From Cirrosporium novae-zelandiae (taxonomy: Eukaryota), in contig JAPETS010000009.1 in NCBI GenBank assembly GCA_026023565.1, positions 558,001 through 622,000 of the forward strand: a DNA stretch of 64,000 bases, given 5' to 3'. The position numbers and the translations under genes are program-made. The number at the start of each line of letters is the position of its first letter. The stretch's first letter is position 1. This document shows, piece after piece, positions 2,743 to 13,405 of the stretch. The notes beneath the pieces are model-generated. The model was given only the letters and a program-made list of their open reading frames with translations, did not search any database and had not been told where the DNA came from.

Positions 2743-4683
<1,941 letters not shown>

Positions 4684-6781: not shown

Positions 6782-7521
6782 ATGGGTGACGAGGTTAGAA
6801 ACTACATCTATCTTGTCTCTAATATTAGGTCGAAGCTGATTAAACCACCAATAGGGAGCTACCCCTCGAGAACTCCTTCTTGAAGCCTGCCGCCGCAATA
6901 ATACTGAACTTCTTACTGAAATCATTTCAAGCATTACCGATACTGAGAAAATGGCTCTTTTATTGAATGACGCAAAGGATGGGGTTGGCAATCACGCACT
7001 TCACGTTGCTGCAACCTACGGAAGCTGTAAGCTCCCAGTATATCCCACGACCATATCCAAAAAGGTGGAAGAATCTTGATTATTAATTTGCGAAAGAGCA
7101 GACGAAGTTATAGACTTGCTTCTGGACCAAGAAGGTCTTGAGGTTGACCCTATAGACCGATTGGAGGGTGATACACCACTGCATAAAGCGGTTCGTTTTA
7201 TCAATAGCCAAGACACTGAGCACTGGGAAGGCACAAAGGCATTGGTGGAGTTGCTGGTAGACGCGGGAGCAGATCCAAGGTAGCCTAGCGTTAGCATGAC
7301 CTCAACTCGAGGCGTCTTTTGTGCACTCATCTAGAATCAGACTGATTGGGAATAGGGTCCGCAATCGTGCTCATCTTACACCTCGGGATCTTGTCGACCC
7401 TAGAAACACTGAACTACGAAAGTTCCTACAACATGCAGAGTATGCCATGGTTATTGGGGATGATGTGGTTAACTATGATGAAGACGATGGACCAGCAGGA
7501 AGCGCTAGCGACAGCGAATAG
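6782..7521 (+). CDS. Small ankyrin-repeat protein, 4 exons
   Basis: Spliced MGDE|GATPRELLLEACRRNN...GNHALHVAATYGS|...EGDTPLHKAV...LLVDAGADPR|VRNRAHLTP...SASDSE*. Contains ankyrin TPLH and GADP motifs. Confidence 0.85.
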
Positions 7522-8010
7522 ATCTTACGAGGCTACGACTGCTCAGTTGACAGCATACATTGTCACGGCTAATGAGATATTCCCAAAGAACTTGCATGGG
7601 TGAAGGCGCATTTGTTCGTGTGAGCGTGCACATATAGATCTATGGGTGGTGAGCTTGTAGGTTATGATGTTAGATATGCCTTCAAGATTATCCTGCCAAA
7701 CACATGTTTGGAGTAGGAAAGTGTACACTCTACGACGGAATTGATTTCGAACTGCCTACACCTTGAAGGTTTTATAAATACATTTTTGAGACGAGCCCTA
7801 AAGAAAAGAGAAAGACTATCCCAGACAAACTAGAAAGTTAGCATGTTAGAGCTGCCTTGTCAGTCAAAAAGATGGACACGATGCCACAACTCTGAATGGT
7901 CAGCGAATGATGTGACAAGACCAACAACATCCAGACTTGTAATTGCAAAACAAGATCATTACCGGGATCGATTCGGAAACATCGAGCGTCGCTAGGGTTT
8001 CCTGGGAGTT

Positions 8011-10302
8011 TCAAGCCCCAGGAGGGGGTGGGGGAGGGGGCTGATCGCTCGGTGGCTATAGAAGGTTAGTTCGGAAATATGAATAGCTTCAGGGTTAGGT
8101 AGAGCTTACAGGAGGTGGAGGACCATCACCAGGAGGGGGTGGGGGTGGAGGATTTCCTGCAGGTGGGGCCCCATAATTCTGGAATAATGCACCAAGTCCC
8201 GGCGGAGCGCCAATGCCTGGAGTTGGACCACCCATTCCAGGAGGAGCAGCCATTTGGTCCCCATAGCCACCACCAGGGTATCCACCGTACCCATAAGGTT
8301 GCTGTTGGCCGCCGGGGGGCGGGGCCGGTTGTTGCCACGGGGCTGCGCCACCGGGAGCTGCAGGATAACCATTCTCTGGCTTACTATATCCATAATTGTC
8401 ACCACCGTTCCGACCTCCACTAGCCCAAGGAGGTGCCGAGTCACTACTGCGATAATCGTCACGAGGGCGGTCATGATTACCGCGTTGTTGCCAGGGAGCT
8501 GCTTCACCAGTAGGGCCTCGTTGCCAGGGCTTTAAATCACGATCACCGCCACCATAATGATCGCCGTTGTAGCCACCAGGCCCAGCTTCAATCCGATGAG
8601 GAGCCTCTCCATTAGCAACAGGTGCGCCGCCTGAAAGCTCTTGCATAAGTGACTAGCAAAATGTTAGCGAAACTAATTCAAGGTGAACTAAGTGATAAGT
8701 TATGCTTACTTCATATTCACGATCGACAACATCCCCAGAACCAATTGCCCGGCCAGGTGGAGCACGGCCACTAAAGCCACTAGGTCCATTTCGCCAGTCC
8801 TGTCCTCTTTGCCTATCAGGGCAATCCCTGGCCATGTGTCCAGCATTACCACAGACTCGGCAAATGATATTAGCAGTGAAGTTTCGTGCTTCGGGACAAT
8901 CATATTTTCGATGTCCAATTTGACCACCTAGGCAATATTAGTTTTCGAAAGCCATTTCTCGTTGAGTTATCTTATAACTTACAGTTCTGACAAGCTTGGT
9001 TTTCGTCATCACGTAGAGTACCATTGAGTGCGGCAAGCTCTCGGAGTTGATTACGCTTTAATTCATTCTGGCCTTCGGGGATCGAAGCAGCCTGACACAG
9101 TATTAGCACATTAATCGCATCTCTAGTTTCAGAGGATCTGATATCACATACCGTCTCAATAACATTATGAATCAACTTCTTCGCCTTATTAACTTTCTCC
9201 TCGGTATCTGCCATAATCAAACAATGAAGGTCCTCTTCCTGGTTGCTGGTGTGAGCGGCATCAGAACGTCCTTTTCCTTCTTTCACGGAGCCTTTCCCAC
9301 GAATGGCAATCTTAGCTCCAGAATCTGCTTCCATCTTTTTCAGTGTGTTGCCTCGAGGCCCGATAAGTAGTCCAACTTTAGTAAGAAGAAGAAGCTAAGT
9401 GTCAGTCCAGTTTCATCATAGTTAAGTATTTGCGCATAGAATGGTTCAAGGGTTAGTGGGAGGGTTAGTGGCTAAGACATGCTGCATCCTCCGAAGAATG
9501 CCACACGCATTGCCGTAAGGAAATGGAAAACAAAAGCAAATGAACAGGAAGGTAGTTAGAGGGTTAGTTATCATACTGAAGTTAATCTCTGGATAATCGT
9601 TAACCGGCACGTAGACCTTTTCCTGTGTCTTAGTCGGACGTCTGTAGTCAGATGGTGGATGATAATTGGGAATAATTTTCATAGCCTTTTCGATGAGTTT
9701 ATGTCGTTCATCTTCAAGGCGCTTGCGGTAACGGTATTCTCGAGTATTAACACGCCGACCCATGTTATCATATTGTGGTGGAGGAGAAGGGGATCTATGA
9801 GAAGAGTTAGTATCGATATCTGTAACCACGAAATGAACGAAGCCTACCTATCGCCATCTGCTGGAACGACATCGTTAATTCTGAGTTTCTGGCTAATTTC
9901 TTCGATTCGCAAGTGAAGAGTATAAGCTTCAAGCTGCTCGTTTGTCATATTCGCAACGATCATTGTTGGCAACCCCATAAGACCAGCGGCCTTGTTCTCT
10001 TGAGCATCACCCCATCGATTTCTCTTCTTTCGCCTCTTGACTCCATCGGCAGGTGGATCAGCTGTCATAATGTCAGGTAAACTGGTAAAAGAAATCGAAC
10101 CCACAAGCTTCAACGTACCTCGAACTGGACTCCGCCCCCGTTTGTAGCCTGTCTCCTTCAGACCATCAGAGGGTGCTGAAGGATTGTATCCTCCATCATC
10201 GGGAGGAGGGGGCGGAATATCATCAGGAGCACCTCCAAATCTTCGACGCGTCCCTAAAGGAACATTATTTGAGCCTGTAATACCTTGGTTACGCCAAGCC
10301 AT
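8011..10302 (-). CDS. MSL5: Branchpoint-bridging protein (splicing factor SF1/BBP), multi-exon
   Basis: Contains [10 protein letters not shown] (ULM), [10 protein letters not shown], the KH-QUA2 domain ([15 protein letters not shown]...[14 protein letters not shown]), two CCHC zinc knuckles and a Pro-rich tail ending in TGA at 8013-8011. An alternative in-frame ATG lies at 10308. Confidence 0.96.
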
Positions 10303-11293
10303 TTTCATTGATAGATCGTACTGAGATGAATGATTAACGCGTTGATTAGAGAAGAGTGTGAAGTTAGCAAGATGTTAAGAAGGTAGAGGAACTTTAAAGT
10401 TATTCGGTTTTGACCAAGGAAATTTACCACGTGACCTACAGTACTGTATCACCGTGCTACCCTTACTAGACTAGTACATTATTTTCGCAAGGATCCCTCC
10501 CCGATTCCAAGCTAGACCCCAATCCCGACGAGAATTACACATCGAAGAGGCCACTTATCCTATGCCAGTCTCCAAGTGCTATTGAGACCCTTTTTCACAA
10601 ACAGTTACATTTGAATGTATGCACTACATAAATAACAAACTCAACAGGAATTTTATCAACAATACCTCCTTCAAGAATTTACTAAGGTATTTATTACAGT
10701 AATAGGCAAGCCTCATGAGAGTAAAATTGACAACAAATCTATAGAACATTCTAATGAAGACTAATATACAACGATCAAGATCTATTCAATGTCCAAGGCT
10801 CTGCACAATCAGTACTAAGGATAGGAAATTTTCCCATGAAACGAGCTGCTAGACTACATCAGTCGAATTTTCCCACTGAAAGGGGTTTGCTTCCCCTCAT
10901 TTTCACCAACCAGTCACTAAGACCGTATGCGCCAGGACCGACGTTATTTGGGTATGGACCTGTTATGATGTGAATCGAGGGGACTCCATTATTCATACAA
11001 ACTAGCCATAGCAGTGTATGTATAGCTGATCCACCTTCAACCCCTCCATATCATCATATCTTGTCTCTATTAGCCGTGGAGTTCGACTAGATCTTTAATG
11101 AAGTAGGAGTAAAAAATGCTTTTCAGTGATGCTCCCAGGAACATCACCCAATCCAATCTTAGGCTTACAAGGCTCCTTTTTAGAAACCGAATATGGCCAC
11201 TAGAAAATCTTCGAGGACAGTTGTTCCTTAGAGTATACCCATCTTTCAAGGTATGTCTAACTCATTGGGAGCTAAATAGGATTTCCTGTAGGT

Positions 11294-13405
11294 CTATACC
11301 AGAACGTATAGAGAACACATCTATAGATATATTAGCGAGGTTATGCAAGATAGCAGGTTGAAAGAGGCATACCATAGAGAGACCAAGGATCATAGAGATC
11401 CAGAAAAATACATTCTGCGATTCATGTTAGCACATTTCATCAAAACTAGAGATGCTAATTAAGAACCATACATTAAGCAATTTATGGCCTCTCATAAACT
11501 TCGATCTTTGAAAGGCAACGTAAGGGAATTGGAACATCATTGCAAAGAAGCCATAGCCTCTCAATTTCTTCGTTATACATCCCATGACTAACTCATGGGC
11601 CAACGAGCTGATCAAGAATGTAATCACGGTAGCTAGAGTGCGTGAAACTTTCGGTCGAGATGCCAAAAAGACATGACGTCTGAGGAAATGGTGTACAGGA
11701 ATATTCCATTCCCGAGAAAATTCGAGCCTAGAAATTTGTTAGTGAAAAATCACAAGGGAGACCGCAAAACCTGCAATGGTCGCAATAAGATAGCTAAGTC
11801 GATCCAAGGGCAACGGATGATATGTAAATTGCAAAATGAGCAGTAGCATGCTCGAGAGACCTTCGGTAAAACTAGCCGAGATCTTGAACTACAAAAACAT
11901 GTGTTTCTCGTGGCTGAAGAAGTGTCCAAGCAAAATTACCATCACGTTGGAGCCTGGCCTGTTGCAGATATTGAGATCAAGCAGCAGAATGCTTACCAGT
12001 CAGATGAATTCCACCAGTCCGAGTAAAAATGCCGATCGGCAAATCTAGTCAATTCGGCAAATGCCCCCAAAACATACTCAAAAATAACCAAGAACACGAG
12101 AAGGAAAGAGACCATGAAGGGAAATAGAAGCAAGCTAATCGTTTCTGCAACGACAAGACTTCCCTCGGAGATACTTTGTCCGCCCTGTAACCTGAATTCG
12201 GAATCGCGGAGTACAGGAACAATAAATTCTTCGCTAACAATGGTGAGGAGGAAAATGCAACCAAATATTGCAAGGACTTTCCAGAAGACCTCTAACCATC
12301 GAATCCGTGGCACTCTCGGATACTCTAGTTCGTAGCAGAGTGTTGGACACAAAACAAAATCCAAGTAGTTGAGCATAGTAAGGTTTTGTGGATACGATAC
12401 TCTCCCAAGCGTTGAAGTAAGCTCAAAAGCAAGATCGCTTCGTAGCTCCCCGACCGTCTCTTTATGTTCTGGGCCCGTGGTTGGTTGATCATTTGAGTCT
12501 GTATCGCCCTGTGTACTATAAGAATCGGGATACTTAACAGCAGCTTCAGTGGACGCTGTTTCAGGATGATCTAATTCTCGCAGCCTGCGTTCTGTAACGC
12601 TAAGATGTCCATTATAGAACGAATAAGAATGCAACTTCATAAGAAAGACCAATGTATGAAGCGTCATGAAAACATGAGCAGTCCATGCCCATTGTAGCAG
12701 AAATGGCCATCTATAATCATTAGCAGAATAAAAGGTGAAGTTTGGGAGGCCATCCATACATGATCCATAGACTGAACCACGCAATTTCAAAAGTAGTATG
12801 GATGATCATACCCTCCTGATCCCAACGCAACCAACCATTGCTCCTCCTGAATGTTCGCTGTAACGGGAGACTGATTGCCGTAGAGGCTACCATAGCGAAG
12901 TCACTTACAGCTAATGTCACCAAGTTTTCGGCGAGAAGATTCCAAACTGTAACACGCAAGGGATGCCCCGTGTCCTTGATATTTCGGAGCATAGTAGTCA
13001 TCACCATGATCGCTAGAGCAATCCAAAACAGAACAAAAAAGCCGCGGAAATTTGAGTAATTACTCTCTGGATCAAAATGAGATACCCGCGCTTCATAGCT
13101 TATTGTAGGAAATAACCGTTTTCTATGCTCAGCGCGAAGCTGCTTTCTTGCAGATGCAATTGACCGCGATGAAGGGGGTGCATCCGGAGGGAGAGGGGTG
13201 GAGCGACCACTATCAATATGTGAGAAAAACATACAGGAAACTGACAGCTTCACATAGTATACCTGGAGACCATGGAGGCCAACTCGGCGTCAGAAATATA
13301 ACTGCCATCGTCGCTTGCAGCTTTATGGGCACCTGGCCTCAGGGGACGTGGGCGTAAAAGATTGTCTGTCTGCATATCGATGGGAAATCTCGCTGAAGTT
13401 GACAT
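11294..13405 (-). CDS. ARE2: Sterol O-acyltransferase (MBOAT family, Are1/Are2-like), multi-exon
   Basis: Motifs FRGFFVLFW, MKLHSY, PTLCYELEYPR, AELTRFADRHFYSDWWNS, EWNIPVHHFLRRHV and the catalytic His in SSLAHEL. Last exon MCSLYVLV*. The start codon at 13405 is inferred. Confidence 0.92.

Follow-up and report, generated by a model that had tools for sequence, protein, structure and literature searches.

A conserved intron of the fungal SF1/BBP gene lined with branch-site motifs: a candidate decoy element for autoregulated splicing

Introduction

The yeast ribosomal protein genes RPL30, RPL22 and RPS14 are autoregulated through inhibition of their splicing. In Neurospora crassa the srp2 gene, the orthologue of SRSF5, has a long intron that is retained, with the retained form stabilized in a mutant of nonsense-mediated decay (NMD), and this intron has held out against pressure for shorter ones (Lareau and Brenner 2015, PMC4379411). 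For Smndc1/SPF30, a spliceosome-associated factor with a poison exon that is conserved across kingdoms, the authors found the fungal data too thin to judge (PMC11357089). The Bbp-Mud2 pair of yeast is physically linked to the nuclear exosome (PMC13322074). We analyzed a stretch of 64,000 nucleotides (nt), called the window throughout, from the fungus Cirrosporium novae-zelandiae (class Xylobotryomycetes; GenBank assembly GCA_026023565.1, contig JAPETS010000009.1, positions 558,001 to 622,000 of the forward strand), and within it the third intron of a gene for the branchpoint-bridging protein, SF1/BBP.

BBP/SF1 is the factor that first touches the branch point, and the amount of it affects the choice of introns and of branch sites. 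The KH-QUA2 region of yeast BBP and human SF1 is specific for UACUAAC, as Berglund in 1997 and Liu in 2001 reportedly established, and Rutz and Seraphin reportedly described pre-mRNA retention in 2000. The same specificity of BBP/SF1 is also stated in two further articles (PMC13004596, PMC13322074). Intron 3 of the window gene is a real, deeply conserved and apparently undescribed candidate regulatory intron. We consider it probable, with considerable room for doubt, that it serves the negative autoregulation of BBP by means of decoy branch sites.

Results

The SF1/BBP gene and its third intron

Pfam and homology calls, made exon by exon, identify the gene as an SF1/BBP orthologue (Table 1). 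Its spliced frame is open over 586 codons and is divided by seven GT..AG introns of 57, 53, 201, 60, 55, 57 and 54 nt. The SF1-HH domain (PF16275) is shared between exon 2 (E 5.7e-13) and exon 3 (E 5e-25), the KH-I_KHDC4-BBP domain (PF22675) lies in exon 4 (E 3e-20), and a zf-CCHC knuckle (PF00098) follows the KH domain in exon 6 (E 5.5e-11). The KH core of exon 4 matches the solved KH-QUA2 structures of yeast BBP (4WAL, E 1.5e-21) and human SF1 (1K1G, E 4e-19), and a 584-residue protein of the Cirrosporium novae-zelandiae assembly (P0002) is 100% identical to exons 3 and 4 of the window. Given this domain identity, the window protein is expected to bind UACUAAC.

A sequence-only reading of this DNA had described intron 3 as packed with the binding motif of its own gene product. 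All the coordinates and motifs it gave for the intron proved correct on re-examination: at 201 nt against 53-60 nt the intron is far longer than the others of the gene, and its retention brings a TGA into frame ahead of the KH core. Re-examination added a branch-site-like motif, TACTAAAG, at the acceptor, an internal YAG, a central hairpin and the weakness of the AAG acceptor. The intron holds four sense copies of CTAAC together with CTGAC at the likely branch site. Across the 64 kb and on both strands CTAAC occurs 107 times (0.167 per 200 nt per strand), and intron 3 is the sole spot with at least four copies in 200 nt. The six other introns of the gene carry their 3'-most CTRAY 10-12 nt before the 3' end, the last of them with an additional copy further upstream.

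Conservation among relatives

Metagenome contigs were scanned with exon 4, which yielded 413 relatives; the best 80 were taken, exons 2-6 were placed in them by tblastn, and the 75 loci in which the end of exon 3 and the start of exon 4 were present and in order were used. An intron stands at exactly the position of intron 3 in 72 of the 75, with GT..AG ends in every case, and it measures 137-264 nt in 70 of the 72. In L016 (97 nt, 1575-1674) and L029 (52 nt, 1765-1819) the same position is held by a short ordinary intron with no CTAAC, the donors being GTAAGT and GTAAGC. Over 61 distinct introns the mean number of CTAAC is 4.64 (none in two introns, two copies in two, three in three, four in 16, five in 22 and six in 16). 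The neighboring introns of the same genes in these relatives, which served as background, average 0.39, 0.67 and 0.55 for introns 2, 4 and 5 (about 50-54 nt each), and a first-order Markov model of the long introns predicts 0.47. Of the 60 clusters with at least four CTAAC per 200 nt found across 305 kb of locus DNA, 59 lie inside intron 3 and the remaining one overlaps its start; the motif array is thus specific to this intron.

Outside its motifs the intron diverges freely. A MAFFT alignment (A1) of 60 distinct introns has a mean column identity of 31%, and the columns that are invariant or nearly so are the donor, the first two CTAAC, the mid-intron CTAAC, the block ACTAAC-AC-..AG-.T and the A before the acceptor. 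As regards a spliceosomal twin intron (stwintron), in which an internal intron breaks up a splice signal of the outer one, these columns include no conserved internal GT; a conserved internal YAG is present. Taken by itself the window argues weakly, as two of its four intron copies form a 12-nt tandem duplication; it is the comparison with relatives that settles the matter. The duplication is what would favor chance or a neutral, functionless expansion of repeats, to which we give next to no credence: copy number, orientation and placement are conserved despite the low identity elsewhere, which refutes this account and led us to rule it out.

The orientation of the motif is strict, with 287 sense CTAAC against no GTTAG in 11,346 nt of intron, which argues that the signal acts at the level of RNA. 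It is on this strand bias that we rejected an element read in DNA, in which the repeats would be a site for a telomere-repeat or Myb-type factor. The idea has a starting point, since CTAACCCT equals the C-strand of TTAGGG, the telomere repeat, and is present in 45 of the 60 introns, 68 times in all. However, the telomeric hexamer CCCTAA is present in only 10 of the 60, the conserved core is CTAAC followed by varied pyrimidines, and one copy is the branch site itself, so that such an element seems extremely improbable.

Anatomy of the long intron

The layout of the intron was counted over the 60 distinct long introns and compared with 111 control introns in three sets (43, 48 and 20). The donor is GTATGA or GTACGA, with A at +6 in 51 of 60 introns, G in five, C in four and T in none, where the controls have T in 34/43, 37/48 and 15/20. 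In 52 introns the first CTAAC begins at base 10, and in six more it begins at base 9; two to five copies fall within the first 60 nt in 54, and neighboring copies are spaced 7-9 nt apart in 73 of 88 pairs. Nucleotides 7-60 are rich in pyrimidines (fraction 0.72) and poor in G (0.083). One or two further copies sit in mid-intron, at the 3' foot of a hairpin. The usable branch CTAAC is preceded by A in 56 of 57 introns and is a full TACTAAC in 26, whereas A precedes only 31 of the 148 donor-proximal copies; branch-site quality is graded, the usable site being better than the copies near the donor. The window and L002 have CTGAC at the usable position.

The 3' end is equally distinctive. The branch A is separated from the 3' splice site by 20-28 nt, compared with 8-23 nt (median 11) in the 96 of 111 controls that have a CTRAY, so the true acceptor is unusually far away. 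The usable branch site is followed by AC and then YAG. In 57 of 60 introns the first AG comes 6-7 nt past the branch A, slightly short of the minimum spacing between branch and acceptor in the controls (8 nt), and a pyrimidine run of 13-21 nt follows this proximal YAG. The acceptor itself is AAG in 44 introns, CAG in 16 and TAG in none, while AAG serves in 1/43, 2/48 and 1/20 of the controls. CTAA occurs within the last 9 nt of 39 of the 60 long introns (as CTAACAG in 16, CTAAAG in 15, CTAAG in six and CTAACAAG in two) and of none of the 111 controls. The splice signals of intron 3 are sub-optimal, and this weakness is conserved.

In the 96 controls the branch A is at least 25 nt from the 5' end (median 41), which places the donor-proximal copies too near the donor for use as branch sites. 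Poor placement of the upstream copies had been suspected from the window, and the branch A of such copies would fall at about intron positions 13, 21 and 29; likewise ACTGAC, proposed earlier as the likely branch point, turns out to be the orthologue of the conserved usable site. Two further ideas about these elements were discarded. The proximal YAG is not an acceptor that would be poisonous throughout: among 57 introns, splicing to it would shift the frame in 37, bring in a stop in eight and cause an in-frame insertion in 12. Pairing of the donor-proximal GCUAA with UUAGC past the branch site was dropped because, judged by eye, it reaches at most five pairs and shows no compensating change at the variable 5' element (TTG vs TAA).

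The anatomy bears on what reads the motif. Intron 3 might sense U2 snRNP (small nuclear ribonucleoprotein) or general spliceosome capacity, with CUAAC copies as decoy pairing sites for U2 snRNA or SF3b-bound U2, and BBP output would then track the next factor of the pathway or the whole spliceosome. CUAAC is indeed also the core of the U2 pairing site, and the conserved AC(U/C)U past the usable site could lengthen the U2 duplex. A weak donor, a weak acceptor and a long span from branch to acceptor would render the intron sensitive to a shortage of any splicing factor, and in fission yeast acceptors distant from the branch are described as requiring extra factors (PMC9508853). But the donor-proximal array conserves CUAAC only, and the two preceding bases, which a six-pair helix needs, vary; conservation of just five bases fits a protein reading the UAAC core better than base pairing. 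The element also sits in the BBP gene itself, and there is none elsewhere in the 305 kb of flanking fungal DNA. On balance we regard a U2 sensor as unlikely.

Central hairpin

Folding predicts that a stable, conserved hairpin stands between the donor and the branch site. In 59 introns the most stable 56-nt stretch has a mean minimum free energy (MFE) of -20 kcal/mol and, relative to the most stable stretch of dinucleotide shuffles, a mean z of -3.9; 45 of the 59 introns have z below -2, and the observed value is reached by only 79 of 1475 shuffles. The hairpin occupies about intron positions 55-120, and its 3' end is -3 to +10 nt from a CTAAC in 41 of the 59. Within the clade of the window, RNAalifold finds compensatory change in five of 10 pairs. 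When the clade alignment is fitted to a covariance model (R1), 81.5% of its cells pair and 11 of 19 pairs have changed on both sides, a value that none of 500 shuffles matches, with the alignment being one fitted to the model; slid controls pair at 23-58%. R1 matches the window at 9461-9533. A single hairpin model for all clades was rejected, as R1 finds its own clade only; what is conserved is thus a hairpin at that place and not the sequence of the hairpin.

No described family of non-coding RNA, such as the small nucleolar RNAs, was found in the intron. Rfam gave one sub-threshold match in 9300-9650, on the opposite strand (14.9 bits vs a gathering score of 32, E 0.79), and in the whole window no family at gathering score.

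Apparent retention of intron 3 in relatives

Transcript-derived contigs among the loci of relatives were recognized by sequence alone. L004 is a fully spliced transcript contig of the organism of L009, with 100% identical blocks split at the introns of two genes. It removes exactly L009 2805-2998 and uses the distal AG, which confirms the predicted splice sites of intron 3. L046 is likewise fully spliced. L030, 99.6% identical to L055 across the unspliced intron 3, has lost its upstream introns and kept intron 3. In L005, L017, L027 and L007 intron 3 is the sole interruption, flanked by two long open reading frames (ORFs) of 231-277 and 401-422 codons, and their nearest relatives (72-86% identity) have introns 2 and 4. 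The tally is five transcript-like contigs that keep intron 3 only, two that are fully spliced and none that keeps another intron. Among ORFs of the jgi, lgn and ena contigs, 16 fuse exons 1-3 and then enter intron 3, five begin in the 3' part of intron 3 and continue through fused exons 4-8, and four are full-length and spliced.

We also observed that L030 (1068 nt) is circularly permuted, running through exon 3, intron 3 and exon 4, then fused exons 2-3, and ending in intron 3. This permutation is probably an assembly artefact of a graph repeat.

Retention yields a stop in 59 of 59 distinct introns, inside the intron in 57 and shortly after it in two. The stop always precedes the KH core and leaves exons 1-3 intact. 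Among annotated proteins, 58 of the 176 with the exon-3 end motif lack the canonical intron-3 junction: 36 are read-through products truncated to 243-313 residues, 11 are full-length and translate part of the intron from the donor onward, and 11 have other junctions (for example, with the 3' part of the intron translated). BBP thus seems to be mis-annotated in many genomes, the odd intron misleading gene finders.

These 36 proteins have exactly the form predicted if the product of the retained mRNA mattered in itself. This would be an N-terminal fragment of about 205 residues plus a tail, with the U2AF/Mud2 motif and the helix-hairpin and no KH domain, an RNA-blind competitor for Mud2/U2AF; that the stop unfailingly spares exons 1-3 speaks in the same direction. 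However, the tail varies from six to 76 residues and is conserved over no more than about its first eight, where it is simply the translated CTAAC array. With four further exon junctions more than 1 kb downstream of its stop, the transcript is also a typical decay substrate. A functional fragment appears quite improbable to us.

The ready assembly of an intron-retaining form from RNA also bears on the sign of the effect. Were the array a splicing enhancer, CUAAC would recruit BBP-Mud2 and, through Prp40, the U1 snRNP, and any feedback would be positive or absent. An intron of 140-260 nt is an outlier in intron-definition fungi and may need such help; the bridge from BBP to U1 in the commitment complex is established (PMC13322074), and the central hairpin could cut the effective distance, as the zipper stem of yeast RPL7B does (PMC12311795). 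Yet an enhancer gives no account of the retained form, or of the branch-like motif that 39 of 60 introns have joined to the acceptor AG, and it leaves the poor donor, the poor acceptor and the branch-to-acceptor distance of every lineage unexplained, when shortening the intron, as in its neighbors, would be simpler. We hold this explanation to be improbable.

Taxonomic distribution

The best named protein matches of the loci belong to Plenodomus, Epicoccum, Melanomma and Ascochyta (Dothideomycetes), Paecilomyces (87%) and Emydomyces (Eurotiomycetes), Hyaloscypha (91-98%; Leotiomycetes), Podospora, Chaetomium, Phialemonium (92%) and Parahypoxylon (Sordariomycetes), and Peltula (Lichinomycetes). 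Annotated proteins that read into intron 3 extend the range, as their tails past ...EINF translate the donor and the CTAAC array. Such read-through tails occur in three Aspergillus species; the tail S-E-I-A-N-P-L-T-F-L-T recurs in many Xylariales, in Microdochium and in the lichen fungus Polycauliona (Lecanoromycetes), S-T-E-L-T-P-L-T is found in Periconia, and S-M-I-A-N-P-L-T-L-T-T-N-P in Trichoderma. Judged by these matches, the nearest named relatives cover at least seven classes of Leotiomyceta.

L044, a 36-kb contig whose exon 2 is 100% identical to BBP of Tricharina praecox (Pezizomycetes), has introns 2 and 4 and none at the position of intron 3 (exon 3 ends at 2997 and exon 4 starts at 3001). 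Exons 2-3 of L016 and L029, which have the short introns, are 81-86% identical to all 120 listed matches, from several classes. The class spread, together with these three loci, points to the elaborate intron as a feature of Leotiomyceta that is absent from at least one earlier-branching lineage. The short, plain introns of L016 and L029 suggest that the intron position is older than the decoy array.

Feature map and neighboring sequence

The elements of intron 3 and its flanks are collected in Table 1.

Table 1. Elements of the SF1/BBP gene and its third intron in window coordinates
Feature	Position	Strand	Remarks
SF1/BBP (branchpoint-bridging protein) gene	8011..10308	-	8 exons; ATG at 10308, stop 8013-8011
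Exon 3	9577..9794	-	End of SF1-HH; terminates in ...YPEINF and the first base of an Ile codon
Intron 3	9376..9576	-	201 nt, GT..AG, phase 1; splits the Ile codon before GLLIGPRG of the KH domain
Donor GTATGA	9571..9576	-	Non-consensus (A at +6)
Donor-proximal putative decoy array	9555..9568	-	ACTAAC 9568-9563 and TCTAAC 9560-9555
Pyrimidine-rich spacer	9515..9554	-	
Central hairpin (predicted)	9470..9514	-	Best 56-nt stretch MFE -20.5, z -4.2
Mid-intron putative decoys at hairpin 3' foot	9452..9469	-	ACTAAC 9469-9464 and 9457-9452, 12-nt tandem duplication
TGA	9446..9448	-	First in-frame stop upon retention
TACTTAAC, degenerate branch-like motif	9421..9428	-	Not conserved in the alignment of relatives
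ACTGAC	9401..9406	-	Likely used branch site; branch A 26 nt from acceptor
ACTTAG	9395..9400	-	YAG (9397-9395) 7 nt past branch A; not the acceptor
Short pyrimidine tract	9384..9394	-	
TACTAAAG	9376..9383	-	Branch-site-like motif fused to the weak AAG acceptor
Exon 4	9152..9375	-	KH core GLLIGPRG...; Pfam PF22675

Three CTAAC within 200 nt were seen at two other places of the window, 4114-4268 (minus strand) and 7669-7849 (minus strand), the second overlapping the 3' untranslated region (UTR) of BBP. In that 3' UTR, about 50-185 nt past the BBP stop, the stretch 7829-7961 (minus strand) reads GTAATG ... CTGAC ... CTAAC-ATG-CTAAC-TTTCTAG. It looks like a 133-nt 3' UTR intron with two more CTAAC which, if spliced, would itself mark the BBP mRNA for decay. 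No 3' UTR intron is removed in L004/L009, the sole transcript/genome pair, from a Pleosporales-like relative.

Upstream of BBP, 11427-12805 (minus strand) holds long open frames containing ...FYSDWWNS..., which we take to be the FYxDWWN motif of membrane-bound O-acyltransferases of the ACAT/DGAT1 family. The gene converging on BBP, at 6855-7521 (plus strand), has frames that by eye resemble ankyrin repeats (...GNHALHVAATYG..., ...GDTPLHKAVRF...).

Discussion

The anatomy, its conservation, its strand specificity, the weak splice sites, the stop and, in the transcript-like contigs of relatives, the retention of intron 3 only are observations. The explanation that we favor for them, and hold to be probable in the measure stated at the outset, is that intron 3 is a sensor by which BBP, probably as the BBP-Mud2/U2AF heterodimer, would limit its own synthesis. 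The intron would be built for poor splicing, with a GTAYGA donor and an AAG/CAG acceptor set 20-28 nt behind the branch A, roughly double the spacing usual in these genes. It would offer one good branch site, normally (U)ACUAAC, and place its other CUAAC copies where branching should be impossible: a tandem array from base 10, one or two copies at the foot of the hairpin, and often one fused to the acceptor AG. Together with the pyrimidines behind it, each decoy could imitate on a small scale a branch site and its tract, as a target for BBP-Mud2.

When free BBP is scarce, the productive site alone would be occupied, intron 3 would be removed and full-length BBP made. When BBP is in excess, the mostly sub-optimal decoys would fill as well; as the donor-proximal copies conserve CUAAC alone and are mostly sub-optimal, they would do so only at high BBP. 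Filled decoys might keep U1 off the donor and the 3' splice-site factors off the acceptor, or lead them astray; alternatively, they might give rise to dead-end cross-intron complexes. Intron 3 would then be retained, with a stop before the KH RNA-binding core and four exon junctions downstream of it, and the transcript would be destroyed through NMD, or else be held in the nucleus as RNA marked by Bbp-Mud2 and degraded by the exosome. We infer from the sequences that BBP is the likely reader and that the sign of the feedback is presumably negative, with NMD and nuclear decay as the candidate routes.

The sequence-only reading had proposed autoregulation by decoys of this kind, and it is partly supported. 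Its cluster, the placement of the copies and the stop stand, and retention in the contigs of relatives adds to them; the cluster, on whose conservation the proposal had been staked, is kept in number, orientation and placement across many lineages, at the enrichment of 4.64 against 0.39-0.67 reported above. It confined all action to the donor; the conserved anatomy points equally strongly to the 3' end.

Several observations weigh against a decoy-based negative feedback, or against parts of it. Five distinct introns have only two or three CTAAC (L062 and L002, for example, have two). The intron-keeping contigs might represent nuclear precursors whose intron 3 is slow to be spliced, and not a regulated isoform, and L005, L017, L027, L007 and the 21 intron-containing ORFs could reflect genomes without the other introns. 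Truncated annotated proteins are weak evidence, as gene finders may fail on odd splice sites; moreover, 18 of the 118 models with a canonical junction depart after exon 4, about 13 of them in what looks like intron-4 read-through. The clade model R1 misses the other clades, with 14 strong matches and two weak ones (L053 and L001, at the correct place) in 63 sources, and folding of the whole intron is only mildly unusual (mean z -1.0, below -2 in 14 of 59). The usable site of the window is the weaker CTGAC, while three of its decoys are ACTAAC; this arrangement fits repression and shows that affinity grading is not universal. Finally, sequence by itself separates neither BBP from U2 snRNA as the reader of CUAAC nor repression from activation.

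A rather unlikely elaboration would make the intron a three-layer rheostat in crown Pezizomycotina. Graded decoys at both ends, organized by the hairpin, would sense free BBP-Mud2; the YAG and the acceptor-fused motif would form a checkpoint for the second step; and the RNA-blind fragment would bind U2AF/Mud2. If this were true, a two-layer feedback would set branch-site stringency for the whole transcriptome.

Decoy-based autoregulation of BBP, for its part, would clearly illustrate how a core splicing signal can be turned into a regulatory decoy. The cis-element, splice-signal decoys in the gene of the factor itself, would be readable straight from sequence, and it is conserved over a clade to which most filamentous ascomycetes belong, among them model species as well as major pathogens of plants and humans. 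If confirmed, it would mean that a donor, a branch site and an acceptor are all that intron-definition fungi need to construct regulated retention. A search of the full-text literature, with subscription journals and supplements outside its scope, found no description of self-regulation by SF1/BBP or of intron 3, and there 'branchpoint-bridging protein' and 'intron retention' co-occur only in a cancer review. To our knowledge, the MSL5 gene of budding yeast has no such intron.

Comparison with described systems places intron 3 among relatives that each share part of its design. SF1 and Quaking share its motif and protein family, and occupancy of ACUAA(C) by KH-QUA2 decides splicing there, as proposed here; in that case, however, two proteins compete at real branch sites of animal genes (PMC13004596), and 'autoregul-', 'its own' and 'decoy' have no occurrence in the article. 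Smndc1/SPF30 resembles the proposed system as an ancient, conserved case of self-limiting splicing in a spliceosome-associated factor, with a cassette exon and not a retained intron with decoys (PMC11357089). The link of Bbp-Mud2 surveillance to the exosome through Thp3-Csn12 offers an NMD-free way to hold and destroy BBP-coated RNA in the nucleus (PMC13322074); this is a general pathway of budding yeast, and its self-regulatory use here is our suggestion.

The yeast genes RPL7B and RPL18B/RPL28/RPS22B resemble the proposed working of intron 3 in that the protein, bound to an element near a splice signal in its own intron, blocks spliceosome assembly, with conserved intron hairpins participating (PMC12311795, PMC13232506). 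The yeast ribosomal elements are structured mimics of rRNA sites for factors foreign to splicing, whereas the BBP element is a linear repeat of a splice signal whose predicted reader is a component of splicing. The srp2 gene of Neurospora is a fungal splicing-factor gene that likewise has one unusually long intron with a stop on retention (PMC4379411). Unlike intron 3, the srp2 intron is not notably conserved among Aspergillus species, no cis-element is named for it, and the terms SF1, BBP and branch point are absent from that article (PMC4379411). In BBP, by contrast, the factor is the core branch-point binder and the candidate cis-element consists of arrays of its own recognition motif. Self-limiting unproductive splicing is already common among splicing factors; what sets this intron apart would be its explicit decoys of the own motif.

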